A stretch of 33,609 bases of DNA from a virus (Duplodnaviria > Heunggongvirae > Uroviricota > Caudoviricetes). How positions within the stretch are numbered: position 1 is the stretch's first letter; each line of letters begins with the position of its first letter. Positions 1,165 to 30,088 of this stretch are shown here, piece by piece. The notes beneath the pieces were generated by a model that ran no database searches, had not been told where the DNA came from, and saw only the letters and a program-made list of their open reading frames with translations. The position numbers and the translations under genes were made by a program. The stretch lies in the IMG/VR virus record IMGVR_UViG_3300043470_002422; one strand, given 5' to 3'.

Positions 1165-1171
1165 TAATATA

Positions 1172-1240
1172 ATGGGAGTAACAGAAATATACAACGGACA
1201 AAGATCAAGTAATTTACTAAGGAAAAATAGGATCTTATGA
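1172..1240 (+). pseudogene. 22-aa mini-ORF, probable internally deleted GT11 paralog
   Basis: MGVTEIYNGQRSSNLLRKNRIL*. Its TGA overlaps the ATG of the GT11 gene (ATGA). The start resembles GT11 N-termini of the M-x-V-T-E-x-Y-N-G-Q-G-L-G-N-Q type (from recall). Confidence 0.45.
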
Positions 1241-3008: not shown

Positions 3009-3012
3009 TAAT

Positions 3013-3035
3013 TTCCTGAAATTATTCCTGAAATT
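3013..3035. repeat. TTCCTGAAATT direct repeat x2 (period 12); first copy lies in the quasi-palindrome ATTTC-CT-GAAAT
   Basis: Seen directly at 3013-3023 and 3025-3035, in the intergenic region before rfbH. Confidence 0.6.
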
Positions 3036-3067
3036 TTATCTAAGATAATCTATACAAATTCAAAAAA

Positions 3068-4354: not shown

Positions 4355-5049
4355 GAGTAGTTATTCTAGGCGATGGTCTATTGGGAAGCTATCTAAGAGA
4401 TAAAACCCAATGGGATTTTATAAGCAGGAAAAAAGACGGAATCGATTTTTCTAATCTAGATTCATATTCTTCTAAATTGGAAGAATATGATGTTGTTGTT
4501 AATTGTATTGCAAATACCGACACTTATTCAGAAGATAGGAATTTGCATTGGGAAATCAACTACGAAGGCGTTGCAAATTTAATTGATTTTTGCAACTCTT
4601 CAAATAAAAAAATAATTCATATCTCTACAGATTATATCTATACCTTTTCAAAAGATAACGCTTCAGAAAATGACGTTCCTGTCCATTCCAGAAATTGGTA
4701 TGGATACACTAAATTACTTGGAGAGGGGTACGTTTTATTGAGATCTAAAAATTATCTAGTCATAAGGACTACACAGAAAAAAACCCCATTTACTTATCCA
4801 AAGGCATACATAAATCAAGTAGGAAATTTTGACTATGTTGATAAGATAGGAGATTTGATAATAAGACTGATAGAATCTGGTGCTACTGGAATTTATAATG
4901 TGGGGACAGATAAAAAGTCTATGTACGATCTAGCTCTACAGACAAACGATAAAGTAGTTGCAACTATGGATTTATTTGATCCAACGACACCAATTAATCT
5001 AACCATGGATTTATCGAAAATGAATAAATTCCTAGATGATGGTATATAA
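4351..5049 (+). CDS. RmlD-like NAD(P)-dependent 4-keto-sugar reductase
   Basis: ILGDGLLG, VVNCIA.T, ISTDYIY, YGYTK (YxxxK); short at 232 aa. Confidence 0.8.
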   Translation: MRVVILGDGLLGSYLRDKTQWDFISRKKDGIDFSNLDSYSSKLEEYDVVVNCIANTDTYSEDRNLHWEINYEGVANLIDFCNSSNKKIIHISTDYIYTFSKDNASENDVPVHSRNWYGYTKLLGEGYVLLRSKNYLVIRTTQKKTPFTYPKAYINQVGNFDYVDKIGDLIIRLIESGATGIYNVGTDKKSMYDLALQTNDKVVATMDLFDPTTPINLTMDLSKMNKFLDDGI

Positions 5050-17730: not shown

Positions 17731-18597
17731 TTGAAGCCTTTATACAGTAGATCACAAAATTTAAAAGTTACTAAAACAGAACTAGCCAAATTAGGTCTCA
17801 CTTCTGTTCAAGCGACTATGATCGAGCCTAATACTCAAGGTCTCGGTTTATTGGGGATTGGGTATTTAAAACCTCTTCCTGATGTTCCTACTGATTACCA
17901 AGCAGTAACCAATTCTAAAGGAAATCCCGTTTATTCGAAAACTACAGTTCAGACTTATTCCATATTTTTTGCTCAATATGAGAACACTTATATTCCGGAA
18001 GGAGATGAAAAATTATATTCCTTTGTTGCAGTAAGAACACTAAATCCTATTACCTCAAGTGATTGTGCAAAACAACTTGGAATGAAACAATCTAATGTTT
18101 ATGGGTTAACCCTTAGTGAATATGAGGCTGGAACTTTTCAACATCCAGTTTATCTCAATCAAAATAAAGAACCATTAACTTTTAATTATACAGATATTCC
18201 TGTTATGCTTCAAACTGTTCCAGGAAGGCTTGATAATGTTCCTATTGGTGCACCTAATTTCCCACTAACTCCTAACAGAATTGCTAGCCAGCTTGGAATG
18301 CTACCTCAACCACCATACCCAGATTTTGTTACCTCTTTTGGTCAAACTGGGGGAACTGCAATTTCTGCCGGAGGAACTGTTGGATTTAGAGATGCTTCTC
18401 TAATGGTTCCTACTACAGTTCAGCCTACCGCATGGAATTGGAACTTTGGACCATCTGCTTCCCCTACAGGAAGTACCGCACAAAATCCAAGTTCGGTAAC
18501 TTATGGATCTACTGGAAGCTTTAGCGTAACTCTAACCGCTTATAATGCCTATGGATCCAAATCAATAACTAAACAAAACTTTGTAATCGTATCATAA
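17731..18597 (+). CDS. Virion-type protein with a C-terminal PKD domain (TTG start uncertain; ATG alternative at 17818)
   Basis: VGFRDAS...PTAWNWNFG...STAQNPS.VTY..TGSFSVTLTAYNAYGSKSITKQNFV; Thr/Ser/Pro-rich; GATATATA at 17703. Confidence 0.75.
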   Translation: MKPLYSRSQNLKVTKTELAKLGLTSVQATMIEPNTQGLGLLGIGYLKPLPDVPTDYQAVTNSKGNPVYSKTTVQTYSIFFAQYENTYIPEGDEKLYSFVAVRTLNPITSSDCAKQLGMKQSNVYGLTLSEYEAGTFQHPVYLNQNKEPLTFNYTDIPVMLQTVPGRLDNVPIGAPNFPLTPNRIASQLGMLPQPPYPDFVTSFGQTGGTAISAGGTVGFRDASLMVPTTVQPTAWNWNFGPSASPTGSTAQNPSSVTYGSTGSFSVTLTAYNAYGSKSITKQNFVIVS

Positions 18598-18598
18598 A

Positions 18599-19726
18599 AT
18601 GTCGGGATTTTTAGAAAAATATAATATAGACGAGGTATTCCTAAGGGGAATTATCGTTGGACTTCTCAGAAGCTTAAATGAAAAAGTAACCTACACTCAG
18701 ATTAATGAACAACAAGAAATATTGGAAGTTTACATTCCTTTTTTCTATTCAATGTCTGGAGACGAATCTTTTTTACAGGACTTCTATTTAGACTATTTAG
18801 ATTGTGACGGAAATTCTCCTTTTGCAGAGGGTAACTATGATATTATTCCTAGAGGAGTAGTAACTTTTACTGGGGTTAATATAGATACAGCTTCAATAAC
18901 AAATGGATTTGTAAGGGCAACTTATAACATTGAAACGGTAGAGGGACAGATGAAAGCATTTTCTGCTTATACGTCTTCTATTCCTCTTAGTATGACCTTT
19001 GATATAAAACTGAGAGCAGATACTTTATTAGATACATTTAAAATTTTCCAATCTGTAATTCAAACTTTCTATAAAGTTTATAGTTTTAATGTTGAGTTTG
19101 GAGGAATGAGGGTTCCGGTTCAAGTTGGATTTCCTGAGCAATATCAAAATGACAAGCAATTAGAATTTACCTATTCAAATACACAAAAGTGGATCGAAAC
19201 CAATTTTTCCATTCAAGTTGAAACTTATTATCCTCAGAAGGACATTGCAACTGAGAGATTTAGAGGAAATCTAATGCAAGCTGGAATTAAACTTAAACTT
19301 TCTATAGGGGATACTGTAATTGGAAGTTCAAGTTTATTTACAACTCCTGCTAATTCTAGTACCCCTGGCCTTCCTAGCCCAACTTCAAACTTACCTACTG
19401 TTTCTGTTCCAGCTAGCTCAACAGGAATAACTTTAAATCAAATCTCGGGATATTACATTAGTGAAGATTCTGTGAATGCTCAATTTGCTTCCCTTCAGAT
19501 GTTCACAGGAGCCGGGGTAATTCCGGTAACTGCTCCTTACATAACTTACATAGATATGACACCTTTGGATATTTCCAATAAGGTTTTAGGGATAAATTTA
19601 TTCATCACTGTTTCTTGTTCTTCTTTAGCGGGTAATGTGATAGCTACCAATGTTTCCGGATCAACAATTACTTTTGAATCCAGCGTATCTGGGGTAGATT
19701 TTTATTTTACCGGGATATATACTTAA
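18599..19726 (+). CDS. T4 gp15-like tail sheath stabilizer/terminator with a Ser/Thr/Pro-rich C-terminal extension
   Basis: IPFFYS..GDE.FLQD, IPRG, IPL.MTF.I...D..DTFKIFQ..I..FY, ..VP.QVGFP, F.IQVETYYP; then an SSLFTTPANSSTPGLPSPTSNLPT linker and a beta domain. Confidence 0.55.
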   Translation: MSGFLEKYNIDEVFLRGIIVGLLRSLNEKVTYTQINEQQEILEVYIPFFYSMSGDESFLQDFYLDYLDCDGNSPFAEGNYDIIPRGVVTFTGVNIDTASITNGFVRATYNIETVEGQMKAFSAYTSSIPLSMTFDIKLRADTLLDTFKIFQSVIQTFYKVYSFNVEFGGMRVPVQVGFPEQYQNDKQLEFTYSNTQKWIETNFSIQVETYYPQKDIATERFRGNLMQAGIKLKLSIGDTVIGSSSLFTTPANSSTPGLPSPTSNLPTVSVPASSTGITLNQISGYYISEDSVNAQFASLQMFTGAGVIPVTAPYITYIDMTPLDISNKVLGINLFITVSCSSLAGNVIATNVSGSTITFESSVSGVDFYFTGIYT

Positions 19727-19740
19727 AATAATTTTTAGAT

Positions 19741-20055
19741 GTGTCCGTAAATTCTCCAAATAATCCGATTTTAGAACCAGGTCTTAGTGTTAGAATTATC
19801 GATGGTTCCACTAGTCAAACTTTTGATACCCTATATTTTGTAGGAACCTCGAATAACTATGTTAAAAAATCTGCTAAAAGCGAGACTATTAACTATTCAA
19901 CATTTGGAAACTTCTGGACTAAGCAGATTTCAGTGGAGAGTAATTTTAGGGATATTCTAGACGGGGGAGATTCTGCACCAGGAACAGCACAGTTCTTCGG
20001 TCCAATCATAGGAGGGGAATTCCCAACACAAACAAGATTATTAAACAACATATAA
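19741..20055 (+). CDS. Hypothetical virion-associated protein, 104 aa (GTG start)
   Basis: ORF track; ILDGGDS motif; NNPIL shared with the next ORF; GATATATA at 19714-21. Confidence 0.55.
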   Translation: MSVNSPNNPILEPGLSVRIIDGSTSQTFDTLYFVGTSNNYVKKSAKSETINYSTFGNFWTKQISVESNFRDILDGGDSAPGTAQFFGPIIGGEFPTQTRLLNNI

Positions 20056-20061
20056 AAGAAA

Positions 20062-20424
20062 ATGGCTTATAGAATACAATTTAGAAGAGATACATCTACA
20101 AACTGGGATAGTAACAATCCTATCCTTTTACAAGGAGAGTTTGGCTATGAACTTGATACCGGATTTGCTAAAATTGGTGACGGATCCTCTACATGGGATC
20201 AATTAACTTATTTTGGAGGAACAGGTCCAACTGGACCAACTGGTTCAACTGGACCAACTGGTTCAACTGGTGTAACCGGATCAACTGGACCTTCTGTTTC
20301 TTCTCTAGCTCCTGGATCGTCGGGTGCTACCGGAACAACCGGAGAATTAGCTCTGGATACAAACTATCTTTACGTTTGTGTTGGAACAAATACTTGGAAA
20401 AGAACCCAGATAACAGGCTGGTAA
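20062..20424 (+). CDS. Mini-fibre: Mtd_N-like domain, short collagen-like G-X-T repeat and fibre C-terminal cap
   Basis: [10 protein letters not shown]...[23 protein letters not shown]; G-X-T triplets; [21 protein letters not shown]. Confidence 0.8.
20215..20295 (+). repeat. Collagen-like coding repeat (8 G-X-T triplets, then GPS)
   Basis: CAACTGGACCAACTGGTT occurs twice (20228-20263) plus a partial third copy. Confidence 0.85.
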
Positions 20425-20444
20425 TTTTTTAATAATGAATATTT

Positions 20445-20469
20445 AAAAGCCCTTTATTGGGGCTTTTTT
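20445..20469 (+). terminator. Intrinsic terminator after the virion module
   Basis: AAAAGCCC-tttattg-GGGCTTTT followed by more T. Confidence 0.8.
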
Positions 20470-20471
20470 GT

Positions 20472-20497
20472 GAAACAATTCTTAGCAGTAAACTATA
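20472..20497 (+). promoter_or_regulatory. GAAACAAT-N10-AAACTATA(AT) motif upstream of cluster 2
   Basis: Matches the motif before uvsX and includes TATAAT. Confidence 0.5.
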
Positions 20498-20519
20498 ATA
20501 GATAATAAATTATAGAATT

Positions 20520-20795
20520 ATGTCAGAACCAATAAAATTATCTCAAGAAGAATTAGATTCAATTAAAGATCTAAGAGAAAAAATAAGATCTAACGTTGAA
20601 AAAATCGGAAGACTTAACATCAAAAGACACTTTACAGAGACCGAGTTGAATTTGATTAAAATGGATATAGATACGGAATATCTAGAAACAGAAGAATTGA
20701 GTAGACAGGAATCTAAAATTGTTGATTCTATCATAGCGAAATATGGTGATGGTGATTTAGACTTCACTACAGGTATCTACACTCCAAGATCTTAA
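20520..20795 (+). CDS. Hypothetical coiled-coil protein, 91 aa
   Basis: Heptad-rich body; C-terminal KYGDGDLDFTTG.YT. Confidence 0.7.
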   Translation: MSEPIKLSQEELDSIKDLREKIRSNVEKIGRLNIKRHFTETELNLIKMDIDTEYLETEELSRQESKIVDSIIAKYGDGDLDFTTGIYTPRS

Positions 20796-20814
20796 TTTTT
20801 CTAACAACCAATTT

Positions 20815-23130
20815 GTGAGTAAAATAAAAATTTATGCACATGGGTCGTACATAGGAAATACCGGGTACAATCACCATACACGAGATTTTTTTAGATCTCT
20901 TTCTAAATATTTTCCGATCAAATTTAGAAATTTTACTGTAGGTGATTCTTGGAAAGGTCTAAGCGAAACCCCGCATGACGAAGAAGATTATCTAGATGAC
21001 TTAGATAAAAATTTATTATACAGTCAAAGATTGTGGGTAGGGGAAGGTCGAATGGAGGATTTTAAAATATATCCTTCTTCAGAAAAAGAATTTGGAGCCG
21101 ATCTTAATATAGTTCTAAATGAATCAAATCATTATTTATATTACGAAAAATATTCAGGACCCAAAATAGCATATAATGTTTGGGAATCAACCAGACAGAC
21201 TGAAGAATTTTTTAAAAAATTAATATTATTTGATGAGATATGGGTTCCTAGTAAATGGCAAAGAGATTGTACTATAGATCAAGGAGCAAATCCAGACCAA
21301 GTTAAAGTTGTTCCTGAAGGAGTGGATGTTGATACTTTTTATCCAGAATCTGTTGATTTGCTTGACGAGTACAAGGATAAAAGATTTAAATTTCTTTTAA
21401 TGGGAAGATGGGACTATAGAAAATCTACTAAAGAAATTATAGAAACTTTTCTAAAAACATTTTCACCGGAGGAACCCATAGATATTGTTGTCTCAATTGA
21501 TAACATGTGGGGAGAAGAAATGGATGGATTTAAAACCACAGAGGAAAGACTAAAAAACTATGGACTTTTGGATCCTAGAATTAAAATAATACACTTTCCA
21601 AAAAGAGAGGATTACATAAAATACCTTAAAACCGGACATGTCTTTCTTTCGTGTGCTAGATCTGAAGGATGGAATTTACCTTTGATTGAGGCCATGGCCT
21701 GTGGAACACCTTCTATCTATTCTGAGTGTTGCGCTCAGATGGAATTTGCAGAAGGTAAAGGATTACCTGTTAAAATAATAGGGGAAAAGCCTGCAAATCA
21801 AAACACCTACGGCAGATACAGTATGGGTGATCTCCCAGGTAATTACTATGAACCGGATTTTATTGATCTTTCTAGAGTTATGAGAGATGCCTATGAAAAT
21901 TATGAATTTCACAAAAGTAAAGCTGTAGAAGAAAGTGTCGAGTTAAGAAGAAATTTTTCTTGGGAAGAGATTGCTAAAATAGGAAAATCAACAATAGAAG
22001 ATTTTGTCGTAAAAGTAAATCAGCCCGGATACAATAAGAACAAAGACACTAATTCAATTCATATTTCTTATTTAGATGGACCAAAGGTTGAGATTACTGG
22101 AGATTTTGAGTCTTCGTATCATATAGAGTTTATTGATTCTAAAACCGAGAAGATCATTCATTCGGAAACAATAACTAATAATATGTGGTGTGTTTGTTCA
22201 AGAAAATATTACACAGATTGGGTAATTAAGATCAACGGTAAAGTTGTTGACACTTTTGGACTTGAGGGTAAAAGAGTTTTAATTTCTTTTGAGTCTAAAT
22301 CTATTGGGGATACAATTGCATGGGCTCCTTATGTAGTAGACTTCGAAAAAAAACACAAATGCAAGATTATATTATCTACATTTCATAATGACTGGTTTAA
22401 GGGGGTTAAAGAATACTCTAATTTTGAATTTATATCCCCCGGAAGTAACACAAATTGTTATGTTGTTTATAGAATTGGATGGTTTAGATCTAATGGAGGT
22501 AGATGGGACGATTTTAATTCATACCCAAATCCATTAAATTCACAGCCTCTCCAAAAGACATCTTCTGATATTTTGGGATTAGAATTTGAGGAAAGAAATT
22601 ATGGAATTAATTTTACTCCGAGAAAAAATCCTATGACTGAAAAATATGTTGTAATTGCCCCGGAGTCTACCGCAGGATGTAAAGAATGGACTAGAGAAGG
22701 ATGGGAAATTCTAACAAAGATGCTAACTGAAACTGGGATTCAGGTAATTTGTTTAACTCAAAAACCATATTTTATTAAAGGAGCCCGTTGTATACATGGC
22801 AAAAATTTGGAAGAATCTATTAATATACTGTATCACTCCGAATATTTGATCGGACTGAGTTCAGGTCTTTCCTGGATTAATTGGTCGCTAAAAAAACACA
22901 CAGTTATGATTAGTGGATTTACTGCTAAGGATCACGAATTTAAAACTAATATAACTAGAATACAAAATTCAAATGCTTGTAATTCTTGTTGGGAAAATAC
23001 AAATTTTATTTTTGATACTGGAGACTGGGATTGGTGTCCAGTCTGGAAGGGAACAGATAAACAACACATTTGCTCAAAATCTATATCACCAATAACAGTA
23101 TTTAATTTATTACCAGAGATAAAAAAATGA
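20815..23130 (+). CDS. Fusion of a GT4 glycosyltransferase and an Aah/TibC-type (autotransporter O-heptosyltransferase, BAHT) domain; GTG start
   Basis: GT4 part: VVPEGVD, GRWDYRKS, SEGWNLPLIEAMACGTP. From about 22051: GKRVLISFESKSIGDTIAWAPY, STF.ND.F, KEW..E.W, IGLSSGLSW, MISGFT, CNSCW, WCP, HIC. Confidence 0.88.
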   Translation: MSKIKIYAHGSYIGNTGYNHHTRDFFRSLSKYFPIKFRNFTVGDSWKGLSETPHDEEDYLDDLDKNLLYSQRLWVGEGRMEDFKIYPSSEKEFGADLNIVLNESNHYLYYEKYSGPKIAYNVWESTRQTEEFFKKLILFDEIWVPSKWQRDCTIDQGANPDQVKVVPEGVDVDTFYPESVDLLDEYKDKRFKFLLMGRWDYRKSTKEIIETFLKTFSPEEPIDIVVSIDNMWGEEMDGFKTTEERLKNYGLLDPRIKIIHFPKREDYIKYLKTGHVFLSCARSEGWNLPLIEAMACGTPSIYSECCAQMEFAEGKGLPVKIIGEKPANQNTYGRYSMGDLPGNYYEPDFIDLSRVMRDAYENYEFHKSKAVEESVELRRNFSWEEIAKIGKSTIEDFVVKVNQPGYNKNKDTNSIHISYLDGPKVEITGDFESSYHIEFIDSKTEKIIHSETITNNMWCVCSRKYYTDWVIKINGKVVDTFGLEGKRVLISFESKSIGDTIAWAPYVVDFEKKHKCKIILSTFHNDWFKGVKEYSNFEFISPGSNTNCYVVYRIGWFRSNGGRWDDFNSYPNPLNSQPLQKTSSDILGLEFEERNYGINFTPRKNPMTEKYVVIAPESTAGCKEWTREGWEILTKMLTETGIQVICLTQKPYFIKGARCIHGKNLEESINILYHSEYLIGLSSGLSWINWSLKKHTVMISGFTAKDHEFKTNITRIQNSNACNSCWENTNFIFDTGDWDWCPVWKGTDKQHICSKSISPITVFNLLPEIKK

Positions 23131-23849
23131 TAGACATTAGTAATTTTGATTGGGGTTGGATGGACGAGCCTTGTGAAACTTATCAAATCATGTCAGATGG
23201 GACACACAAACCAATGGGACTTTATCATAAGGATTCCATCATTAAAGAAATTTTTGAGGGGGAAAGCATATATGAATTATTTTTTGAAGTGGAGGAAAAT
23301 GATATTGTTCTTGATGTAGGAGCTAGCCTAGGTCCTTTCACCAGGTCTATTTTACACAAAAATCCAAAGCATGTATTCTGTTTTGAACCAAGCTACAGAG
23401 AATTTAAAGTGTTAGTTAAAAATACCATGGGATATCAGGTAACTCCTATCTTTAAAGGAATTTCTGATAAGAATGGGATATCGGAATCTGATATGCTCTT
23501 TGGTGGAGAATCCGAAATGGAATCTATTACATTTAAATCTTTTATTGACTTATTTGGAATTGATAAAATAGATTTCCTTAAAACCGACTGCGAAGGAGGG
23601 GAATATGATATTTTCACTAGTGGAAATCTTCCATATATAAAAGAGAACGTAAAAAAAATAGTTGGAGAATGGCATCTTAGTACAGATGAACTTAAGACTA
23701 AATTTAGAAATTTTAGAGATCATATATTACCAAACTTCAATAAAGTTATAATTTTTTCTGTAGACGGGATTGACATTACCTGGGATTTGTGGAATGAACA
23801 CTTCATTGAATATTATACCGAAATTATAATTCACATTGACAATAGATAA
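23127..23849 (+). CDS. FkbM-family SAM methyltransferase
   Basis: VLDVGASLGPFT, CFEPS, IDKIDFLKTDCEGGEY. Confidence 0.87.
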   Translation: MIDISNFDWGWMDEPCETYQIMSDGTHKPMGLYHKDSIIKEIFEGESIYELFFEVEENDIVLDVGASLGPFTRSILHKNPKHVFCFEPSYREFKVLVKNTMGYQVTPIFKGISDKNGISESDMLFGGESEMESITFKSFIDLFGIDKIDFLKTDCEGGEYDIFTSGNLPYIKENVKKIVGEWHLSTDELKTKFRNFRDHILPNFNKVIIFSVDGIDITWDLWNEHFIEYYTEIIIHIDNR

Positions 23850-23851
23850 AA

Positions 23852-24496
23852 ATGGCACAAGGAGTACATAAAATTACGGAGGATTTTGAAAAATCACTAT
23901 GCGATTATACCGGATCGCCTTATGCAGTTGCATTAGATAATATGAGCAATGCTTTATTTTTAGCCCTTTACTACGAAAAAAATATAAAGAAAAGTATTAA
24001 GGCTGGAACTGTCGATTGCCCTGCTAGAACTTATCCTTCCGTTCCGTGTGAAATAATTCACGCAGGTCTGAAGGTTAATTTTACCCCAGTGGAAGGGGAT
24101 ACCATAAAAGGAGCTTATCAGCTTTTTCCAAGCAACGTCTGGGATTCCGCTTTAAGATTTAGCGCTGATATGTATATCCCAAAAACCCATATGTGCTTAT
24201 CCTTTACTGGACCATATAAAACACTGAAGCTGAGCAAGGGAGGAGCAATATTAACCGATGACTATCAAGCAATGTTATGGTTCAAAAGAGCTAGATTTAG
24301 TGGGAGAAGAGAATGCTCATATCACGATGATAACTTTGATATGCTAGGATGGAATTTTTACATGATGCCGGAACTCTCAGCAAGAGGACTTTTGATGATG
24401 ACTCAGTTTTATAACATGGACGGGTCAAAAAAATACAACGAAGATCTAGAACTACCATATCCTGATTTATCAAAATTTGAAATTTATAAACAATGA
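23852..24496 (+). CDS. Short DegT/DnrJ/StrS-family PLP sugar aminotransferase, 214 aa
   Basis: FEKSLCDYTGSPYAVA...SNALFLAL, TYPSVP, WDSA, CLSFTGPYKTL (Lys), GGAILTDD, LGWNFYM. Confidence 0.8.
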   Translation: MAQGVHKITEDFEKSLCDYTGSPYAVALDNMSNALFLALYYEKNIKKSIKAGTVDCPARTYPSVPCEIIHAGLKVNFTPVEGDTIKGAYQLFPSNVWDSALRFSADMYIPKTHMCLSFTGPYKTLKLSKGGAILTDDYQAMLWFKRARFSGRRECSYHDDNFDMLGWNFYMMPELSARGLLMMTQFYNMDGSKKYNEDLELPYPDLSKFEIYKQ

Positions 24497-25071
24497 AAAA
24501 AGCATTAGTCGGATATGGTGGACATGCCAAAGAAGTGATGGCACAAATGGGGTTAAATATTACTTGTTTTGTAGACGACAAATATTTGATCACCGGAACA
24601 AAACCATTATCTGAATTTGATCCGAAAGAATACTCTTTGATGGTTGCAGTTGCAGACCCGATAGACAGACATAATATTATACAGAAACTTCCAAAAGAAA
24701 CTAAATATTTTACCTGGATACATCCAACTGCTTTACTGATGGGGAAAATAGAAATCGGAGAAGGTAGCTTTATCGGTGCTTATTCTATTCTAACTACAAA
24801 TATTAAAGTTGGAAGTCATTCAATCTTAAATAGGGGTAACCACATTGGCCACGACTGTATTATAGGAAATTATTTCAGTGCAATGCCCGGATCTATAGTT
24901 TCAGGAAACGTTCATATAGGAAATATGGTTTATTTAGGAACAAATTCCTCCATAATAGAAAAAAAATACTTAGCACACAATATCAAAATAGGTGCAAATA
25001 GTGTAGTTATAAGAGATATAAAAGAACCTGGTATTTATGCTGGATCTCCTGCTAGAAAAATTTTAAAATGA
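24493..25071 (+). CDS. PglD/NeuD-family sugar acetyltransferase (left-handed beta-helix)
   Basis: GYGGHAKEV, FVDD, IHPTA, hexapeptide repeats, GNHIGHDC, GIYAGSPAR. Confidence 0.88.
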   Translation: MKKALVGYGGHAKEVMAQMGLNITCFVDDKYLITGTKPLSEFDPKEYSLMVAVADPIDRHNIIQKLPKETKYFTWIHPTALLMGKIEIGEGSFIGAYSILTTNIKVGSHSILNRGNHIGHDCIIGNYFSAMPGSIVSGNVHIGNMVYLGTNSSIIEKKYLAHNIKIGANSVVIRDIKEPGIYAGSPARKILK

Positions 25072-26057
25072 AAGATCTAATATTAATAACCTCATATTGT
25101 CCCGATGACCATAGAGAAAATATACTGAGAAATTTAGTTTATTCTTTAGAAAAATACAAAAGTAATTTTGAGGTTATGGTCGTAAGTCATACCCCAATTT
25201 CTTTAGACATTCAAAAAAAAGTTGAATTCTGCTTTTATGATAAAAAGAATGAAATCCTGACCGATTGGGATCTCCTAAATCAACCTTGGTTTATCCCTAG
25301 CGGGGGAAGAAGAATTCAATCTTCTTTCCTTAGCAAAAAAAATACACATTTAGCAATCTGGAGGCTAATGATACTGGGATTTTCAAATGCCAAAAATTTA
25401 GGATTCTCAAAAGTCCATCATATAGAATATGATTGTGAGATAAATGAAATTAGTGAATTTCTAGAAAATAGCAGATTGTTAAATGAGAATAATAGTGTTG
25501 TCTATATGGATATTCAAGAAAGAATATCCCCTGTAATGTTTGGAAGTTTTCAATCTTACTTTATTCCAAAAATCCACGAATTACTTGTTAATCTTAATGA
25601 AGAAAAAATTAAAGATTTAATAAGACATGCTATCTCTAAGTCTCCAGAGGGTCTTTTAAAACAACTAATAGATGAAAGTGGTAATGTTGTTGTCAAGAAC
25701 AGAGACGTTTTGAAAAAAAAAGGAAATAGATTTGGAATAATTAATAGCCAATCGATTAATAAAAATCCTTGGTCAGTTCCTTATTATGACTACTTAACAG
25801 AAACAGTCGATTTTATTTCCTGGAACACATCAAACAAAGAAGGCATAGAATATAAGATAATAATAAATAATACCAATTTAGTTTACATCCCTAAAGTTTA
25901 TATTGATTGCTGGACAATTAGGTCTCTGGGAAAAATAGAAGAAATTAATTCTATTATAGTTCTAGAAAATGAAATAATTAGAGATACTTTTTACCTGAAT
26001 TCAGAATCAGACAGGGAATTATTTAAAAAAATGAGCTATAGAGTAGTAGAAGATTAA
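25068..26057 (+). CDS. Hypothetical protein, candidate GT-A glycosyltransferase (paralog of 28690-29670)
   Basis: LILITSYC, VSHTPI, F.DKKNEIL..W, HHIEYDCEI. Confidence 0.6.
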   Translation: MKDLILITSYCPDDHRENILRNLVYSLEKYKSNFEVMVVSHTPISLDIQKKVEFCFYDKKNEILTDWDLLNQPWFIPSGGRRIQSSFLSKKNTHLAIWRLMILGFSNAKNLGFSKVHHIEYDCEINEISEFLENSRLLNENNSVVYMDIQERISPVMFGSFQSYFIPKIHELLVNLNEEKIKDLIRHAISKSPEGLLKQLIDESGNVVVKNRDVLKKKGNRFGIINSQSINKNPWSVPYYDYLTETVDFISWNTSNKEGIEYKIIINNTNLVYIPKVYIDCWTIRSLGKIEEINSIIVLENEIIRDTFYLNSESDRELFKKMSYRVVED

Positions 26058-26059
26058 TA

Positions 26060-26611
26060 ATGATTGAAAATATACATTTATGGCATGCTGACAGAGGAAC
26101 TTATTTTGATCGAAATGTGAATATAATTTCGTGGAGTGACCAATATCAAATCAGATTAGGCCGATATAATTCAATTGGTAGAGATTGTAACTTTTTCCTG
26201 CATGCAAACCATAGACCAGATTGGGTAACGACATCTTCCCAATTGTTAGGACCTGTTACGGACGAAATTGCTCAAATGCACATGCAAATGGGACATCCCT
26301 CATGTAAGGGTGATATTATAATTCAAAATGATGTTTGGATCGGAGCAAAGTCTACTATAATGTCCGGGGTTAAAATATCTAACGGATCTATCGTTGGAGC
26401 TGGATCCGTGGTAACTAAGGATGTTCCCCCGTATGCAATTGTTGCCGGCAATCCGGCTAAGATAGTTAAATCCAGGTTTACTGAGGAACAAATTGAAAAG
26501 TTATTAACTATTGCTTGGTGGAACTGGGACGAACAAAAAATTAGAGATAACTCGATGACTATGTGGTCAGATAATATAGATGAATTTATAAATAAATTTT
26601 ATGAAAATTAA
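26060..26611 (+). CDS. CatB/Vat-like (XAT) hexapeptide O-acetyltransferase
   Basis: NSIG, NHRPDWVTT, GDIIIQNDVWIG, GAGSVVTKDVPPYAIVAGNPAK, WWNW. Confidence 0.85.
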   Translation: MIENIHLWHADRGTYFDRNVNIISWSDQYQIRLGRYNSIGRDCNFFLHANHRPDWVTTSSQLLGPVTDEIAQMHMQMGHPSCKGDIIIQNDVWIGAKSTIMSGVKISNGSIVGAGSVVTKDVPPYAIVAGNPAKIVKSRFTEEQIEKLLTIAWWNWDEQKIRDNSMTMWSDNIDEFINKFYEN

Positions 26612-28121
26612 TAAAGCAATTTTTGGTGTTGATGATTCTTACTTTTTAGAATTTTGGCCTATACAAGCTAGGATTTGTAAAGAGTTATTAAACATAGAAC
26701 CTGTTCTATTTTATATTTGTGATGAGGATAGCGACTTCTATAATGATGGGAACGGTTTAGTTAAGAAAATTAAAAAAGTAAAAAACACTCAAAATGGTAA
26801 TGTAATAAATTCTGGATTACTTGCTTGTATTGTACGAATGTATGGCACGAAATATTTTCCAGATGAGGTGTGTCTTACTTGCGATTTAGATATGCTAATG
26901 ATTAATAAAGATTATTTCGTTAATCAAATTGAAAAATATGATAATGATAGTTTAGTTATTTATTCAAGTGATGCGTATGATTTAAATAGACCAGAAGCGA
27001 TTGAGCTGTTTAAAAATCAACCATTTCCTTTTACCCAAGAAATGTATAACTATCCATATAATGCGGCTAAAGGTAGAGTATTTGACAAAATTTTAGACAC
27101 TAATTGTACTTTTGAAGAGTTTACTAATCGTCACGGAAATTATAAACCAGGATATCATTTTATGTGGATGATTGATGAGTTTTATTTTGCGGATTGTGTA
27201 AATAATAAAAATCACGGTATTGAAGTTCATAAACTTAAAAGAGGATACATTTCTCCTTGGATTGCTGATAGAAGAATTGATAGAGGAAATTTCCCTGTTA
27301 AATTAGAGTGGGATGGTGAAATTGAATTCCAAAAAAAATATGGTATTTACGATGAAAAAAAACTTAGAGATGGTTATTATATTGACGTAAATTGTTGTAG
27401 ACCTTATAGCAAATATAAACAAGCGATAGATGATTTAATAGATATTGTATTGTGTGATAAAAATAATATACAGAATAATATAATGTATGATTTAGGGATA
27501 AAACACCAAACGGATAAAATAGTACATCATAGATATGATAGGATTTATCCTTTATTTTTAGATCGATTAAAAAACTCACCGATAAAACTTTTTGAAGTTG
27601 GATGTGGTTCTGATTATGCATCATTTAACATGTGGAAAGAATATTTTCCAAGCGGGATGATATTTTCTATGGACATTAATGAAGAAATTGAAACAGATAG
27701 AGGCATAGTTTATAAAGGGGACCAAACCAAAGAAGAAGATCTAAATAGAATGGTCGAAATAATTGGTAAGTGTGATATAATAATTGATGACGGAAGTCAT
27801 GTACCGCAACACCAAATAGAAACATTTAATTATCTTTTTGAAAACATGCTAGAAAATGGTGGGATTTATATTATTGAGGATATTGAGTGTAATTATTGGA
27901 ATCCAAGAAATATGATTTACGATTACCAAATAGGTGACTATAATATTGTGGACTATTTTCAGTCTTTACCGCACAAAATAAACTCGGAATTTAGTAATAT
28001 GAAAAATCATAAATCAATCTCGTCACTAACTTTTTTCAAAAATTGTATAATTTTAACTAAAATGACATCTGATGAAATTGAAGAAAATAAACAAGAATAT
28101 AGATTTAAAAATATGTTATGA
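26601..28121 (+). CDS. Fusion of a putative GT-A glycosyltransferase and a MycE/TylE-type sugar O-methyltransferase
   Basis: N-terminal: FWP, IVRMY, TCDLDML (DxD). From 27483: TDK..HH.Y...Y, LFEVGCG, MWKEYFP, GDQT, IIIDDGSH, GG.YIIEDI..NYW. Confidence 0.75.
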   Translation: MKINKAIFGVDDSYFLEFWPIQARICKELLNIEPVLFYICDEDSDFYNDGNGLVKKIKKVKNTQNGNVINSGLLACIVRMYGTKYFPDEVCLTCDLDMLMINKDYFVNQIEKYDNDSLVIYSSDAYDLNRPEAIELFKNQPFPFTQEMYNYPYNAAKGRVFDKILDTNCTFEEFTNRHGNYKPGYHFMWMIDEFYFADCVNNKNHGIEVHKLKRGYISPWIADRRIDRGNFPVKLEWDGEIEFQKKYGIYDEKKLRDGYYIDVNCCRPYSKYKQAIDDLIDIVLCDKNNIQNNIMYDLGIKHQTDKIVHHRYDRIYPLFLDRLKNSPIKLFEVGCGSDYASFNMWKEYFPSGMIFSMDINEEIETDRGIVYKGDQTKEEDLNRMVEIIGKCDIIIDDGSHVPQHQIETFNYLFENMLENGGIYIIEDIECNYWNPRNMIYDYQIGDYNIVDYFQSLPHKINSEFSNMKNHKSISSLTFFKNCIILTKMTSDEIEENKQEYRFKNML

Positions 28122-28693
28122 AAAATAAAGAAGAAAAAATTGAAGAATTACTACTTACACCAAGAATGTTTTATAGTGATTTTAAACCTAGATATAATCA
28201 ATTGAAAGGTTTAAAAATGCTGATAGATAAATTTATTGATGATAATATGACCATGGTTGAAATAGGTTCTTTTGCTGGGGTTAGTAGTGAATTATTCTCA
28301 CTACACTGTAAAAAAATATATTGTGTTGACTTATGGGACCCATATTGGGAAATAACAGATAAACAAAAAGTAGAATTTGCGGAGTATTCTTTTGATAAGA
28401 TGTCTAAAAATTATAACAATATAGTAAAAATTAAAAATAGTAGTGTCGAAGCGGCAAAACAATTTGATGATAACTCTTTAGATTTTGTTTATATTGATGC
28501 GGCACATGACTATGAAAGTGTAAGGCAGGATATTTTAACTTGGTTACCAAAGGTTAAAAAGGGAGGATATATCGGAGGACATGATTTTAGATTTGATGAA
28601 AACATCGGTGTATATGAAGCTGTTAATGATATTTTTTGTTACGATTATATGATAACATCATTCCCTGATTCAAGTTTTGTTGTAGAAGTATGA
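28118..28693 (+). CDS. Class I SAM methyltransferase (Methyltransf_24-like)
   Basis: VEIGSFAGVS, VDLW, LDFVYIDAAHDYESV..DI..WLPKVKKGGYIGGHD. Confidence 0.87.
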   Translation: MKNKEEKIEELLLTPRMFYSDFKPRYNQLKGLKMLIDKFIDDNMTMVEIGSFAGVSSELFSLHCKKIYCVDLWDPYWEITDKQKVEFAEYSFDKMSKNYNNIVKIKNSSVEAAKQFDDNSLDFVYIDAAHDYESVRQDILTWLPKVKKGGYIGGHDFRFDENIGVYEAVNDIFCYDYMITSFPDSSFVVEV

Positions 28694-29670
28694 GAAAAAT
28701 AGTTTTAATAAGTTCATATTGCGATACTCAGGAAAAAATTGATATTTTATACGACAATATAAAAATATTAAAGGGGTTAGATTTAGATACGTTAGTAATA
28801 AGTCCAATCACATTACCTGAAGACATAATAGAACTATCTGATTTTGTTTTTTTTACAAAAGAAAATCCTTTGCTAAATTGGCCGGTTCGTGGATTTACTT
28901 TTTGGGAAACAAATTTTTCTAAAGATGGTTGGATGACCATGCACAGAAATGTTGCGGAATATGGATGGGCTGGTTTATACCAAATAAAAAAAATGAGTCA
29001 AATTGCATTAAGTTATGATTACGATTATTTTTATCACATAATATATGATTTGGAAATTGATGAATACGTTATTGATACTATAAATTCTAATATAACTAAC
29101 TTAGTACATCCAAGAATTAATCCTAATAATAATGATGATTGGTGGGATTGTACTCTGCATTTTATGATATTTGATAGGGAAATAATGGGTAAAATTGTTG
29201 ATGTAATAAATCTTGATGATTATTTGAAGCTGGATGGTGTTGCCGAAGGACAAGCGTTATTATGGACTAAATTATTCCCAATCCAAATTTCAAAAACACC
29301 AGTAAGAGATAAAATTTATTATTGGGGTGACAGGGGATTTTTTGATTACTCAATGAACCCAAAATATAAATTATTTATTAGTAAAAATACACCAACAACC
29401 TGTTGGATTTCTGAAGACGATGTTAATATTGAAAAACCAATATCCTCTAACCTTAGATTTTATATTTATGACATCAAAGAACCTCAAAAATTAACATTCA
29501 ATTTAGATGAAGTTCTTTATGAGAGAGAATTAAGTGAAAATGAAATTTTTGAGTTTGAAGTAGATTCAAATACAATAAAAAATATAAAATTAATTGACAC
29601 TTATGGTGAGTATGATTACTCTACTATCTATAAAGAAATTGATAGAAATTTAATTTACTTAGGACATTAG
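28690..29670 (+). CDS. Hypothetical protein, candidate GT-A glycosyltransferase (paralog of 25068-26057)
   Basis: IVLISSYC, VISPI, F.TKENPLLNW, YHIIYDLEI. Confidence 0.6.
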   Translation: MRKIVLISSYCDTQEKIDILYDNIKILKGLDLDTLVISPITLPEDIIELSDFVFFTKENPLLNWPVRGFTFWETNFSKDGWMTMHRNVAEYGWAGLYQIKKMSQIALSYDYDYFYHIIYDLEIDEYVIDTINSNITNLVHPRINPNNNDDWWDCTLHFMIFDREIMGKIVDVINLDDYLKLDGVAEGQALLWTKLFPIQISKTPVRDKIYYWGDRGFFDYSMNPKYKLFISKNTPTTCWISEDDVNIEKPISSNLRFYIYDIKEPQKLTFNLDEVLYERELSENEIFEFEVDSNTIKNIKLIDTYGEYDYSTIYKEIDRNLIYLGH

Positions 29671-29698
29671 AAGACTAACTTAAATATTAATTAAAAAT

Positions 29699-30088
29699 AT
29701 GATATACAATCCAAAAATTTACATAGATAAAAGTCCGATCCATGGTTGGGGGGTTTTTGCCAAAGAGCATATAAAGGAAGGAGAAATATTCGAGGTTTGT
29801 CCTGTTATCACACTCCCCATCAATAAAGGAGAATCCAGTTCTCTTTTAATAGACTATAGATTCAACTGGCCACAGGGAAATGAATGGGAAGAACAAGTTT
29901 TCTCTTTCGGTTTTGGTGGGTTGTATAACCATAGAAATGATGCAAATTCTTATTGGAGATCCAATATTGAAAACAAAACTTTTGAATTTATTGCACACAG
30001 GGACATTTTTCCAGGGGAGGAAATTTTCATCTGGTATGGAGACATAGGGTATTGGAACGACGGGAGAACTCACACGGAAGTGATATAG
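29699..30088 (+). CDS. Stand-alone SET-domain protein-lysine methyltransferase
   Basis: SPIHGWGVFAKE.I..GE..E, LYNH...AN, RDI.PGEEI.I.YG. Confidence 0.88.
   Translation: MIYNPKIYIDKSPIHGWGVFAKEHIKEGEIFEVCPVITLPINKGESSSLLIDYRFNWPQGNEWEEQVFSFGFGGLYNHRNDANSYWRSNIENKTFEFIAHRDIFPGEEIFIWYGDIGYWNDGRTHTEVI

Follow-up and report, generated by a model that had tools for sequence, protein, structure and literature searches.

A candidate protein O-glycosylation cassette beside a collagen-like fibre gene in the neck/tail module of a large lake phage

Does a phage that carries a long run of sugar-modifying genes within its neck/tail morphogenesis module glycosylate its own virion? The question is raised by a window of 33,609 nucleotides (the whole stretch of DNA analyzed here) from a large lake-water phage whose host phylum is Bacteroidota; the surrounding 89-kb contig carries 106 ORFs and represents ~35% of the genome. 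A preliminary description had proposed that the phage glycosylates its own virion proteins, and Pfam, NCBIfam, PHROG and PDB searches recovered the ORFs and domain families that it named (Table 1). The locus is best read as a phage-encoded cytoplasmic protein O-glycosylation cassette that would act on a virion fibre, a reading to which we assign a probability of roughly 55%. The analysis shows which family the enzyme belongs to, that its catalytic residues are conserved, that all the enzymes are soluble, how the genes are ordered, and that related phages carry fibre genes together with the enzyme; which protein accepts the glycan, which sugars are used and what this does to the virion we infer.

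Table 1. Features of the window, with assignments and the matches on which they rest.
Feature	Position	Strand	Length (aa)	Assignment and basis
Second sugar cluster	205..5049	+		PseB-like 4,6-dehydratase, GT11-like, GT17-like, RfbH/DegT-type PLP enzyme, short RmlD-like reductase (Pfam, NCBIfam)
PKD/Ig-like protein	17731..18597	+	288	C-terminal PKD, Pfam E 7e-8
gp15-like protein	18599..19726	+	375	Weak T4 gp15 tail-sheath stabiliser likeness
Conserved protein (orf104)	19741..20055	+	104	Between gp15-like and fibre genes
Mini-fibre	20062..20424	+	120	Mtd_N/HylP-type trimeric fibre head and collagen-like run; proposed glycan acceptor
Acidic protein	20520..20795	+	91	19 bp upstream of GT4-BAHT gene
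GT4-BAHT enzyme	20815..23130	+	771	GT4 and TibC/Aah-type (BAHT) bifunctional glycosyltransferase (TIGR04414, 4RAP, Pfam, PHROG); GT4 ~aa 107-388, EX7E motif 284-292; BAHT aa 411-765
FkbM-family methyltransferase	23127..23849	+	240	4-bp overlap with BAHT gene; Pfam Methyltransf_21 5e-9, TIGR01444 4e-12
Compact DegT/PseC-like protein	23852..24496	+	214	Pfam DegT 1e-10, N-terminal part only
NeuD/PglD-type sugar N-acetyltransferase	24493..25071	+	192	TIGR03570 157.4 bits (cut-off 160.8); Pfam PglD_N and Hexapep
Phage-specific glycosyltransferase candidate	25068..26057	+	329	GT-A domain aa 1-~220, YDCE 121-124; C-terminal beta-sandwich
Vat/CatB-type hexapeptide O-acetyltransferase	26060..26611	+	183	NCBIfam Vat 1.6e-38 (below cut-off), Pfam Hexapep
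Two-domain protein	26601..28121	+	506	N-terminal GT8-like GT-A domain (DLD 95-97), C-terminal SAM methyltransferase
Methyltransf_24 class SAM methyltransferase	28118..28693	+	191	Pfam PF13578 5e-18
Paralog of 329-aa GT-A protein	28690..29670	+	326	BLASTP E 4e-6, aa 1-125 including YDxE motif
SET-domain protein	29699..30088	+	129	Candidate protein lysine methyltransferase, Pfam SET 5.6e-16; cassette end

The GT4/TibC-type fusion noted previously is a genuine member of the TibC/Aah family. Its BAHT domain scores 231.8 bits against TIGR04414, whose equivalog cut-off is 200, and aligns to residues 23-380 of TibC (PDB 4RAP) with an E value of 7.8e-44, while further matches of the protein are to Pfam Glycos_transf_1 (3e-10) and PHROG 2170 (3e-29). 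The catalytic Asp (D110), the phosphate-binding Thr and Lys (T226, K230) and the heptose-binding Trp (W305) of TibC (PMC4358343) correspond to D499, T619, K623 and W687, and all four iron-finger cysteines are kept (Cys339/342/358/370 as C722/725/741/753); the aligned positions are near-invariant across 106 phage and MAG homologs. Arg286 of TibC, an adenine contact whose mutation cripples the enzyme (PMC4358343), is a Ser in the phage protein and an Arg in only nine of the 106 homologs, so that ADP-heptose is only a putative donor. Since this residue is replaced and the 89-kb contig carries no ADP-heptose pathway genes, heptose is doubtful as the transferred sugar. The BAHT domain is proposed as the initiating protein O-glycosyltransferase.

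Nine packed genes follow, encoding three methyltransferase domains, two acetyltransferases, a DegT-like protein, three GT-A-type domains and a SET-domain protein, with intergenic gaps of -11 to +2 bp from the GT4-BAHT gene to that of the 326-aa GT-A protein. The operon, first counted as eleven genes, comprises ten from 20815 to 30088 and reaches eleven only if the 91-aa ORF is included. Profile matches bear out the acetyltransferases and methyltransferase domains, among them PHROG 21658 (methyltransferase, 2e-17) for the C-terminal part of the 506-aa protein (aa 296-432). What had been called an aminotransferase does belong to a DegT-like family, but looks truncated; no other cassette gene, however, is as well conserved (75-90% identity in relatives versus 57-66% for BAHT), and a weak alignment to PseC puts a Lys at the PLP-lysine position. 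The three further GT-like domains, which have no Pfam match, are supported by the predicted fold of the 329-aa protein (AF2 pLDDT 88.6; Foldseek matches to TarS, glycogenin, TarP and GT8/nucleotide-diphospho-sugar transferases, E 1e-5 to 4e-8), by paralogy for the 326-aa protein, and by an Atlas model of the 506-aa N-terminal half that resembles GT8 proteins (TM 0.56-0.60).

Several of these genes travel with BAHT. The FkbM methyltransferase adjoins it in many relatives and is fused to it in Microcystis phage Mel-JY01, the 329-aa family accompanies it in relatives, and homologs of the 326-aa protein adjoin it in five loci (L007, L010, L020, L025, L036). The Vat/CatB-type enzyme is 72-87% identical in relatives, and the SET protein recurs beside the cassette in G021 (74%) and L007 (63%).

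Which protein could receive the glycan? In a survey of the contig's 106 ORFs, the sole run of at least five G-X-Y triplets fell in ORFs 17731, 18599 and 20062, as did the three 30-residue windows richest in Ser/Thr; the GT4-BAHT gene lies downstream of these ORFs, which are all within 3.1 kb of it. This Ser/Thr enrichment exceeds chance, and confirms the Thr/Ser-rich stretches reported earlier for the virion-module products. The mini-fibre is composed of a head (aa 1-51), nine G-X-T triplets (aa 52-78), more Ser/Thr/Gly-rich sequence and a short conserved tip; it matches Pfam Mtd_N (2.4e-16) and Collagen (5.5e-6), PDB 6x3m (1.6e-18) and BclA (1wck, 5.6e-4), as well as 36 PHROG families, mostly of tails or tail fibres. 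Its collagen-like stretch is very short, as is that of relative G021, which has five triplets. The gene is flanked by orf104, which is 84-85% identical at the same position in G021, G022 and G024 and has no family match in Pfam or PHROG, and by the 91-aa acidic protein, 59-61% identical in G021 and G022, with a distant 83-aa homolog (E 1e-6) between the BAHT and sheath genes of L048.

Each of four closely related phages (TerL 85-86% identity) keeps an Mtd_N fibre gene after orf104 and a BAHT cassette of exchanged content ahead of the neck gene; this adjacency may just reflect repeated insertion at one hot spot of a conserved backbone. The fibre ortholog of G024 carries 39 proline-free G-[TS]-S triplets, which supports the view that the mini-fibre is a short allele of a longer collagen-like fibre.

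More widely, BAHT relatives are encoded on at least 558 IMG/VR contigs. A collagen-like ORF lies within 10 kb of BAHT in 39 of 80 loci, often directly adjacent (L047, L048, L007), and collagen repeats occur in 16 of 18 BAHT-bearing records; the pairing is also seen in 6/8 MAG loci, one of them with merely a 7-triplet G-T-G run, and a 275-kb Arenicellales contig has collagen-like genes on both sides of BAHT. The preliminary description had suggested examining synteny between BAHT and G-X-T-type fibre genes across related phages, and co-occurrence is indeed seen: at sheath-anchored loci of one phage group, upstream collagen-like ORFs accompany 13/14 BAHT-positive versus 6/28 BAHT-negative loci (Fisher p 1.2e-5, kinship ignored), and a relatedness-aware contrast, underpowered with 4-6 independent contrasts only, gave a sign test p >= 0.125. 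The collagen ORFs are Ser/Thr-poor and proline-containing at 18 of the 39 collagen-bearing phage loci, so the residues that accept sugar may lie outside the triplets. The proteins known to be modified by BAHT enzymes are autotransporter passengers with a beta-helical fold rather than collagen-like helices (PMC4358343).

The cassette could instead glycosylate another protein, which we regard as unlikely, though as an alternative to be taken seriously. One candidate is a 1557-aa adhesin whose ORF starts 46 bp past the cassette and bears a signal peptide and a CHU_C T9SS domain; the arrangement echoes tibC-tibA and aah-aidA, and bacterial BAHT genes adjoin genes of secreted adhesin substrates (PMC4358343). 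However, the adhesin has no window of at least 13 Ser/Thr per 30 residues, and no copy of its gene occurs in G021, G022 and G024, all of which have BAHT cassettes and two of which (G021, G022) keep the neighbouring genes; it is therefore not a conserved BAHT partner. The PKD and gp15-like neighbours are acceptor candidates solely through Ser/Thr richness and adjacency. The former, with a Ser/Thr-rich stretch at aa 240-269 that is among the contig's top three and a 72% identical counterpart at the same position in G021, may decorate the virion and is a second-rank acceptor candidate. The latter belongs to a tail family by PHROG (2.4e-5), but its earlier assignment to T4 gp15 is weak (Pfam T4-gp15_tss E 2.5e-3, 17.5 bits where the cut-off is 25); it has no PDB match, its predicted fold (pLDDT 30) gives no usable structure, and its 125-aa C-terminal extension with a Ser/Thr/Pro-rich linker is missing from G021 and G024. 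Because the contig covers only ~35% of the genome, a larger fibre, such as a giant collagen-like one, or other acceptor (sheath, capsid or decoration protein) may be encoded in the remaining ~65%. Distant acceptors are made plausible by relatives G001-G003, whose collagen-like proteins of 1098 and 1192 aa are encoded 40-50 kb from BAHT. Against these possibilities, it is the fibre gene that recurs with BAHT across lineages.

The second sugar cluster of the preliminary description is real, and extends ~9 kb past the window start with more glycosyltransferase, PseC-like and P4H-like 2OG oxygenase genes; it probably supplies deoxy- and amino-sugar donors. The ~34 sugar genes of the phage, some of them from families characteristic of polysaccharide synthesis (GT2, GT11, GT17 and GT31-like), together with a secreted T9SS adhesin that denotes an interest in the host surface, might serve to remodel host LPS, capsule or glycoproteins, for instance to block superinfection, with the BAHT-like enzyme acting on a host molecule. 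Large cyanophages and other jumbo phages, big aquatic phages too, likewise carry extensive blocks of nucleotide-sugar and glycosyltransferase genes, the 'LPS' or polysaccharide clusters, whose target is only putative; host-surface remodelling has been proposed for those of cyanomyoviruses. The window cassette differs from them in including an enzyme dedicated to protein O-glycosylation and in its place within the neck/tail module beside a fibre gene; it also co-varies with fibre genes. Moreover, hydrophobicity stays below 1.5 in every 19-aa window of the ~34 products, so that there is no flippase, polymerase or initiating phosphoglycosyl transferase among them, nor is there a ligase or ABC permease, which supports the cassette enzymes being soluble sugar-transferring and tailoring proteins. 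The BAHT family is known only as cytoplasmic protein O-glycosyltransferases (PMC4358343), and host-surface remodelling is in our view improbable.

Hypermodification of phage DNA with a glycan, evading restriction, is very improbable: DNA-glycosylating phage GT-B enzymes are known (cited in PMC12619734) and the contig has a dCMP deaminase gene, but the BAHT domain exceeds its equivalog cut-off with its protein-acceptor architecture (beta-barrel, iron finger) intact, the cassette sits in a structural module with fibre genes, and neither within it nor close by is there a gene for a hydroxymethylase or a base-modifying enzyme.

The closest known systems are TibC-TibA and Aah-AIDA-I of E. coli (TIGR04414; PDB 4RAP/4RB4; PMC4358343), with homology over the whole enzyme (beta-barrel, GT-B catalytic domain, iron finger) and a soluble enzyme encoded beside a repetitive, surface-exposed fibrous protein. 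In contrast to them, the window enzyme is phage-encoded, carries an N-terminal GT4 fusion, lacks Arg286 and nearby ADP-heptose genes, and neighbours a collagen-like fibre rather than an autotransporter; its gene is followed by those of extension and tailoring enzymes, which suggests an oligosaccharide and not single heptoses. To our knowledge, DNA glycosylation systems use far fewer than five glycosyltransferase domains plus methyl- and acetyltransferases, which also counts against a DNA target.

BclA of the Bacillus anthracis exosporium has a densely O-glycosylated collagen region whose oligosaccharide is capped by a methylated, acylated 4-amino-4,6-dideoxyhexose made by the anthrose pathway, and its repeat length differs between strains (PMC10050317), as between the phage fibres. 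Both proteins have a trimeric collagen-like stalk with G-P-T-type triplets, although the alignment of the repeats reflects low-complexity similarity and is no proof of homology. With its 4,6-dehydratase, aminotransferases, acyltransferases and methyltransferases, the phage might produce a sugar of similar kind. BclA differs in its Gram-positive host and in belonging to a spore rather than a virion, and we know of no BAHT enzyme involved in its glycosylation. Mycobacteriophage glycosyltransferases modify the phages' own structural proteins, with shielding proposed (Freeman et al. 2023, Cell Host Microbe, as cited in PMC12619734). By that account, those glycans, in phages of Actinobacteria, are experimentally shown at the C-termini of capsid and tail-tube subunits, whereas the putative system described here involves the BAHT family, a proposed collagen-like fibre acceptor and a different host phylum. 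Our literature search found no paper on the pairing of a phage BAHT enzyme with a collagen-like fibre.

Glycosylation of its own virion proteins by the phage is thus favoured by the TibC/Aah-type enzyme, the soluble sugar operon, the BAHT link to collagen-like fibres and the short-allele character of the mini-fibre, while the glycosylated protein, its acceptor residues, the sugar and the virion effect are inferred. In the fibre reading, the BAHT domain would attach a first sugar to Ser/Thr hydroxyls of a phage structural protein, most likely of the fibre with the Mtd_N head, in its collagen-like stalk; the fibre gene lies 390 bp upstream. Lengthening of the glycan would fall to the fused GT4 domain and the three GT-A-type enzymes, and the methyltransferase domains and acetyltransferases would decorate it, using activated deoxy- and amino-sugars provided by the PseB/DegT/RfbH/RmlD-like genes at 205-5049 and beyond and by the NeuD/PglD-like and DegT-like genes of the cassette. 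The glycosylated trimeric fibre would then be assembled into the virion, where its sugars might make it more stable, shield it or contribute to adsorption.

We consider it likely, at a probability of approximately 0.75, that the sugar-gene cassette headed by the 771-aa GT4-BAHT fusion protein (BAHT, TibC/Aah-type) performs protein O-glycosylation. Positions 14783-48391 of an 89,451-bp IMG/VR viral contig, read on the minus strand, make up the window; the completeness of the contig, 35% (CheckV), points to a genome of roughly 250 kb. Its GC content is approximately 33%, its plus strand carries nearly all of its genes, and the same DNA is present in at least 23 lake-water metagenome runs; no near-identical DNA was found in the phage collection searched. 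The host is probably a member of the Bacteroidota; among the phage's products is a signal-peptide protein of the type IX secretion kind (CHU_C, 1557 aa). When BAHT relatives were located on MAG contigs, five of the eight contigs were labelled Sediminibacterium, Saprospirales, Lutibacter or Ignavibacteriaceae.

ORF calls and family searches recovered the ORFs and domain families of the preliminary description. The SbcD/SbcC nuclease comes first, followed by the 288-aa PKD protein, the 375-aa gp15-like protein, a 104-aa ORF (orf104), the 120-aa fibre, a 91-aa ORF (orf91) and the cassette; on the 3' side of the latter lie a T9SS giant gene, an 851-aa neck protein, a 260-aa ORF, the large terminase, a 1123-aa sheath and a tube-like protein. 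The neck, terminase, sheath and tube genes thus place the cassette inside a T4-like neck/terminase/tail block. The cassette had been described as an 11-gene operon; it is tightly packed, with gaps of -11 to +2 bp from the GT4-BAHT gene to that of the 326-aa protein and the SET-domain gene 28 bp further on, but it holds 10 genes. The T4 late-promoter motif TATAAATA matched 7 times versus 6.7 expected, and sigma-70-like and terminator-like sites showed no excess, being at or under shuffle expectation. A few scattered contigs of 160-210 nt cover the region in one metatranscriptome run, and since DNA carry-over is possible we do not take them as evidence of transcription.

Features of the window and of related loci (window coordinates unless a locus or contig is named)
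Feature	Coordinates	Remarks
Second sugar cluster	205-5049	PseB-like dehydratase, GT11-like, GT17-like, RfbH/DegT-type PLP enzyme, short RmlD-like reductase
702-aa protein	5410-7518	PG_binding_1 peptidoglycan-binding domain; between both sugar clusters
175-aa protein	9619-10146	CAP/SCP domain; between both sugar clusters
SbcD/SbcC nuclease	14919-17680	
288-aa PKD protein	17731-18597	
375-aa gp15-like protein	18599-19726	C-terminal extension at 19340-19726
orf104	19741-20055	
120-aa fibre	20062-20424 (+)	alternative joints at 20221-20270
orf91	20520-20795	acidic
Cassette	20815-30088	
GT4-BAHT	20815-23130 (+)	
FkbM methyltransferase	23127-23849	
DegT-like protein	23852-24496	
329-aa protein	25068-26057	
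506-aa protein	26601-28121	
326-aa protein	28690-29670	
SET-domain protein	29699-30088	129 aa; ends cassette
T9SS giant protein	30135-33608, on to 1557-aa ORF L003:13584-18257:-	signal peptide, PKD-like, CHU_C type IX secretion domain
P4H-type 2OG-Fe(II) oxygenase	L004:2213-2953:- (contig 50212-50952)	~2 kb before window start; PF13640, E 2.8e-14
Shorter BAHT-like paralogs	L040:11062-11937, L047:11074-11949, L132:8175-9110, L133:12106-12999	

The membership of the 771-aa enzyme in the BAHT family is secure. Residues 411-765 score 231.8 bits against TIGR04414, the NCBIfam equivalog for Aah/TibC (cut-off 200), over profile positions 8-370 of 374, and align with residues 23-380 of TibC (PDB 4RAP) with an E-value of 7.8e-44, bearing out the TibC-type fusion claimed for this gene. 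In TibC, Asp110 is the catalytic base, Thr226 and Lys230 are ligands of the beta-phosphate and Trp305 is a ligand of heptose O4 (PMC4358343). These residues align with D499, T619, K623 and W687 of the window enzyme; in 106 aligned phage and MAG homologs Asp and Trp are invariant (106/106 each), Lys is present in 105/106, and the Thr site carries Thr in 99 and Ser in 7. The iron-finger cysteines of TibC (339, 342, 358 and 370), which are required for dodecamer assembly (PMC4358343), correspond to C722, C725, C741 and C753, each found in 106/106 homologs; at the level of sequence, the finger is conserved.

The donor sugar may differ from that of TibC. There, Arg286 contacts adenine N1 and is the basis of ADP-donor specificity, its alanine mutant being largely inactive, and Pro300 is the determinant of D,D-heptose selectivity (PMC4358343). 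The window enzyme carries Ser668 at the first position, where just 9/106 phage and MAG homologs have Arg, and Ser682 at the second, as does Aah. No gene of the ADP-heptose pathway (CTP_transf_like, SIS_2, PfkB) was found on the 89-kb contig, which represents approximately 35% of the genome, and the host might supply the donor. The donor is perhaps other than ADP-heptose.

The GT4 domain (residues 107-388; PF00534, 40.3 bits versus a gathering threshold of 26.4; PHROG 2170, 3e-29) has its EX7E motif, EGWNLPLIE, at residues 284-292, and its fusion to BAHT suggests that both transfers act on one substrate. Streptomyces phage homologs of the GT4 domain are 25% identical and neighbour endolysin and ribonucleotide reductase genes. 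After many phage BAHT genes comes a second, shorter gene for a BAHT-like paralog (292-315 aa). Such paralogs match the window protein only at 480-770, and thus lack the N-terminal barrel; they could be second transferases or non-catalytic partners.

Counting the candidate GT-A domains, the cassette encodes five glycosyltransferase domains in total, along with two acetyltransferases and three methyltransferase domains of sugar type. The FkbM methyltransferase is found fused into a homologous 1226-aa protein of Microcystis phage Mel-JY01 (45% identical). The 214-aa DegT-like protein matches its family profile in part only, and a weak alignment with PseC places a Lys at the PLP-lysine position; its gene is the most conserved of the cassette, with 75-90% identity where the BAHT of relatives shows 57-66%, and the protein seems to be shared widely and to be under strong constraint. 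A spike in lake-metagenome depth (~50 versus ~7) coincides with this gene. Further members are a NeuD/PglD-type N-acetyltransferase, a Vat/CatB-type acetyltransferase, a Methyltransf_24 enzyme and the SET-domain protein. The latter is a candidate protein lysine methyltransferase whose target may be a virion or host protein, and its gene also lies beside the cassette in the close relative G021 (74% identical) and in the IMG/VR locus L007 (63%).

Family searches with the 329-aa protein gave no match. Its model (pLDDT 88.6) displays a GT-A domain and a beta-sandwich, and Foldseek returned TarS, glycogenin, TarP and GT8 proteins with a probability of 1.0, at TM scores of only 0.35-0.45 and approximately 10% identity. 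The 326-aa protein is its paralog (E 4e-6), and an invariant D122 lies inside a YDxE motif in the family of both, which we regard, on the model, as candidate GT-A glycosyltransferases. In the 506-aa protein, the N-terminal half is GT8-like in an Atlas model (TM 0.56-0.60) and the C-terminal half is a methyltransferase. These three proteins account for the further GT-like domains that had been proposed. The second sugar cluster, also described previously, is present and runs approximately 9 kb past the window start; this upstream island encodes a hexapeptide acyltransferase, a PseC-like aminotransferase, a P4H-type 2OG-Fe(II) oxygenase, GT2, GT92-like and GT31-like enzymes, DUF3431 and DUF5672. 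The oxygenase could be a prolyl or lysyl hydroxylase of the collagen-like fibre; the BAHT locus L029 has a homologous domain within an ORF of 617 aa.

No autotransporter, the type of acceptor encoded next to known BAHT genes, was found in the window; the BAHT gene has as neighbours the collagen-like fibre upstream and, in this phage only, the CHU_C protein downstream. The phage's own fibre is the best-supported acceptor, at odds that we put slightly above even. Among the 106 ORFs of the contig, the ORFs starting at 17731, 18599 and 20062 contain the sole collagen-like run as well as the three 30-residue windows richest in Ser/Thr; all three ORFs are at most 3.1 kb upstream of the glycosyltransferase gene, in agreement with the reported Ser/Thr-rich proteins beside the sugar operon. 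The fibre has an Mtd_N/HylP-type head (PF18454, 59.8 bits versus 26.3, E 2.4e-16; PDB 6x3m, E 1.6e-18) and matches 36 PHROG families, mostly tail or tail-fibre. Its collagen-like part is short, consisting of nine uninterrupted triplets; it reaches 26.5 bits with the Collagen profile, slightly below the cut-off of 27.2, and aligns with the collagen region of BclA (1wck, E 5.6e-4), which is heavily O-glycosylated, the glycan being a pentasaccharide capped by anthrose (PMC10050317). A complex prediction for the BAHT domain (19-sequence alignment) and the fibre, run without controls, scored 0.00 and is evidence neither way. In the lake metagenome run X14, many alternative joints and loose ends fall exactly at the fibre triplets, which fits microdiversity in repeat length or sequence, or cross-mapping from other fibres.

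For the 375-aa protein, the gp15-like label is compatible with its position beside the neck, terminase and sheath genes, but the match to PF16724 (T4 gp15) is sub-threshold (17.5 bits, cut-off 25) and phmmer found no match in the PDB; a fold model from four near-identical sequences was unusable (pLDDT 30). Its 125-aa C-terminal extension, a Ser/Thr/Pro linker followed by a small beta-rich domain, is absent from the orthologs of G021 and G024.

The close relatives G021, G022 and G024, with TerL 85-86% identical to that of the window phage, were compared with it. In G021, the order of genes is unchanged between DnaB and the sheath; its GT4-BAHT is 76% identical, and its fibre, of 109 aa, has 5 triplets. 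G022 keeps the gp15-like gene, orf104, orf91 and the fibre (202 aa, with a differing C-terminus), and its cassette differs, comprising GT2, GT9-like, FkbM, GT4, a methyltransferase, a stand-alone 400-aa BAHT and a shorter BAHT-like paralog. The G024 cassette resembles it, also with a stand-alone BAHT, and the fibre after orf104 is 281 aa long; it shares the N-terminal head and contains 39 G-[TS]-S triplets, all free of proline (Ser/Thr fraction of 0.87 at X/Y positions). Given this shared head and position, the mini-fibre of the window is the short allele of a canonical fibre of the Ser/Thr collagen-like kind. Fibre repeat length and cassette content both change among near relatives, while a BAHT gene and the fibre are always retained; this adjacency could also stem from an insertion hot spot within a backbone that is otherwise conserved.

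A pattern scan of IMG/VR identified at least 558 contigs with BAHT relatives. In the best 80 loci (50-66% identity), a collagen-like ORF lies within 10 kb in 39, many of the collagen-negative loci being on contigs shorter than 10 kb. Fibres commonly adjoin the enzyme genes, as in L048, with three directly upstream, L047, where a 3034-aa fibre abuts a BAHT pair, and L007, where the fibre is convergent with FkbM; L036 and L040 have comparable layouts. One order that recurs is fibre(s), sugar genes (the 329/326 family among them), DegT-like, NeuD-like, Vat-like, GT4-BAHT, FkbM, a small orf91-like gene, sheath and tube. L048 carries a distant 83-aa homolog of orf91 between BAHT and the sheath gene, and 83-aa ORFs that do not align occupy this position in L020, L023, L024, L029 and L040; orf91 is a conserved small component of the module. 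Long collagen-repeat DNA was detected in 16/18 BAHT-bearing records, including both complete ones. On bacterial MAG contigs, collagen-like repeats lie near BAHT in 6/8 loci, one being merely a 7-triplet G-T-G run, and flank the BAHT gene on both sides in a 275-kb Arenicellales contig. In the further relatives G001-G003, large collagen-like proteins are 40-50 kb from the BAHT gene.

As a control, we used the sheath gene of the phage group as an anchor, considering the upstream side only, in the 42 loci that had 7 kb or more of sequence on that side. Collagen-like ORFs (at least 8 triplets) occurred in 13/14 BAHT-positive and 6/28 BAHT-negative loci (Fisher p 1.2e-5, a value confounded by relatedness). 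The sheath tree implies at least 6 BAHT state changes; among its 4-6 phylogenetically independent pairs, approximately 3.4 show the collagen trait going with BAHT and 0.1 show it going against, and so small a number of pairs does not allow the sign test to become significant (p >= 0.125). The relatedness-aware test pointed the expected way but had too little power.

Against the fibre as acceptor, the substrates known for BAHT enzymes are autotransporters of beta-helical structure rather than collagen helices (PMC4358343). In 18/39 collagen-bearing loci the collagen ORFs contain proline and are Ser/Thr-poor, so triplet hydroxyls may not be universal acceptor sites. It is rather unlikely that the acceptor is another protein, such as the T9SS adhesin or an unseen fibre. 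The T9SS giant gene, between the SET and neck genes, is absent from G021, G022 and G024, where the flanks are 75-85% identical; the adhesin is thus an insertion specific to the window phage, and was ruled out as a conserved acceptor since close relatives bear the cassette without it. That the cassette remodels the host surface is improbable: hydropathy stays below 1.5 in every 19-residue window of the proteins of the cassette and the upstream sugar island, and no flippase, polymerase, ligase or initiating phosphoglycosyl transferase was seen among them, which is more in keeping with modification of a soluble acceptor in the cytoplasm than with lipid-linked export. Modification of DNA by the cassette is very improbable.

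More broadly, and only tentatively, TibC-type enzymes may glycosylate the collagen-like fibres of tailed phages as a widespread second substrate class in hundreds of aquatic lineages. The lineages behind the at least 558 IMG/VR contigs would carry self-contained cytoplasmic O-glycosylation cassettes that place methylated, acetylated oligosaccharides on Ser/Thr of G-X-[ST] triplets, forming a BclA-like 'glycan nap' on virions. The donor would be other than ADP-heptose because the adenine-contacting Arg is lost, and the P4H-like oxygenase of the neighbouring island might hydroxylate the fibre too. Cassette and repeat length would be quickly swapped among close relatives, as a host-range or anti-defence device. 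To our knowledge, experimentally shown virion glycosylation in phages is limited to mycobacteriophages, and our literature search found no paper on phage-encoded TibC/BAHT enzymes or glycosylated collagen-like phage fibres. What is new is the carrier and the fusion architecture of a BAHT-type glycosylation system, as well as, probably, the acceptor class and possibly the donor.

If glycosylation of collagen-like fibres by these enzymes holds true, particles of aquatic phages would commonly bear glycosylated proteins, and this would affect how they adsorb, how stable they are, which hosts they infect and how defences or grazers recognise them. With just two genes, those of the 771-aa enzyme and the 120-aa fibre, a compact test system would be at hand. 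It would also be explained why this jumbo phage carries so very many sugar genes, and a new class of acceptors, probably along with a new donor, would be added to the BAHT family.
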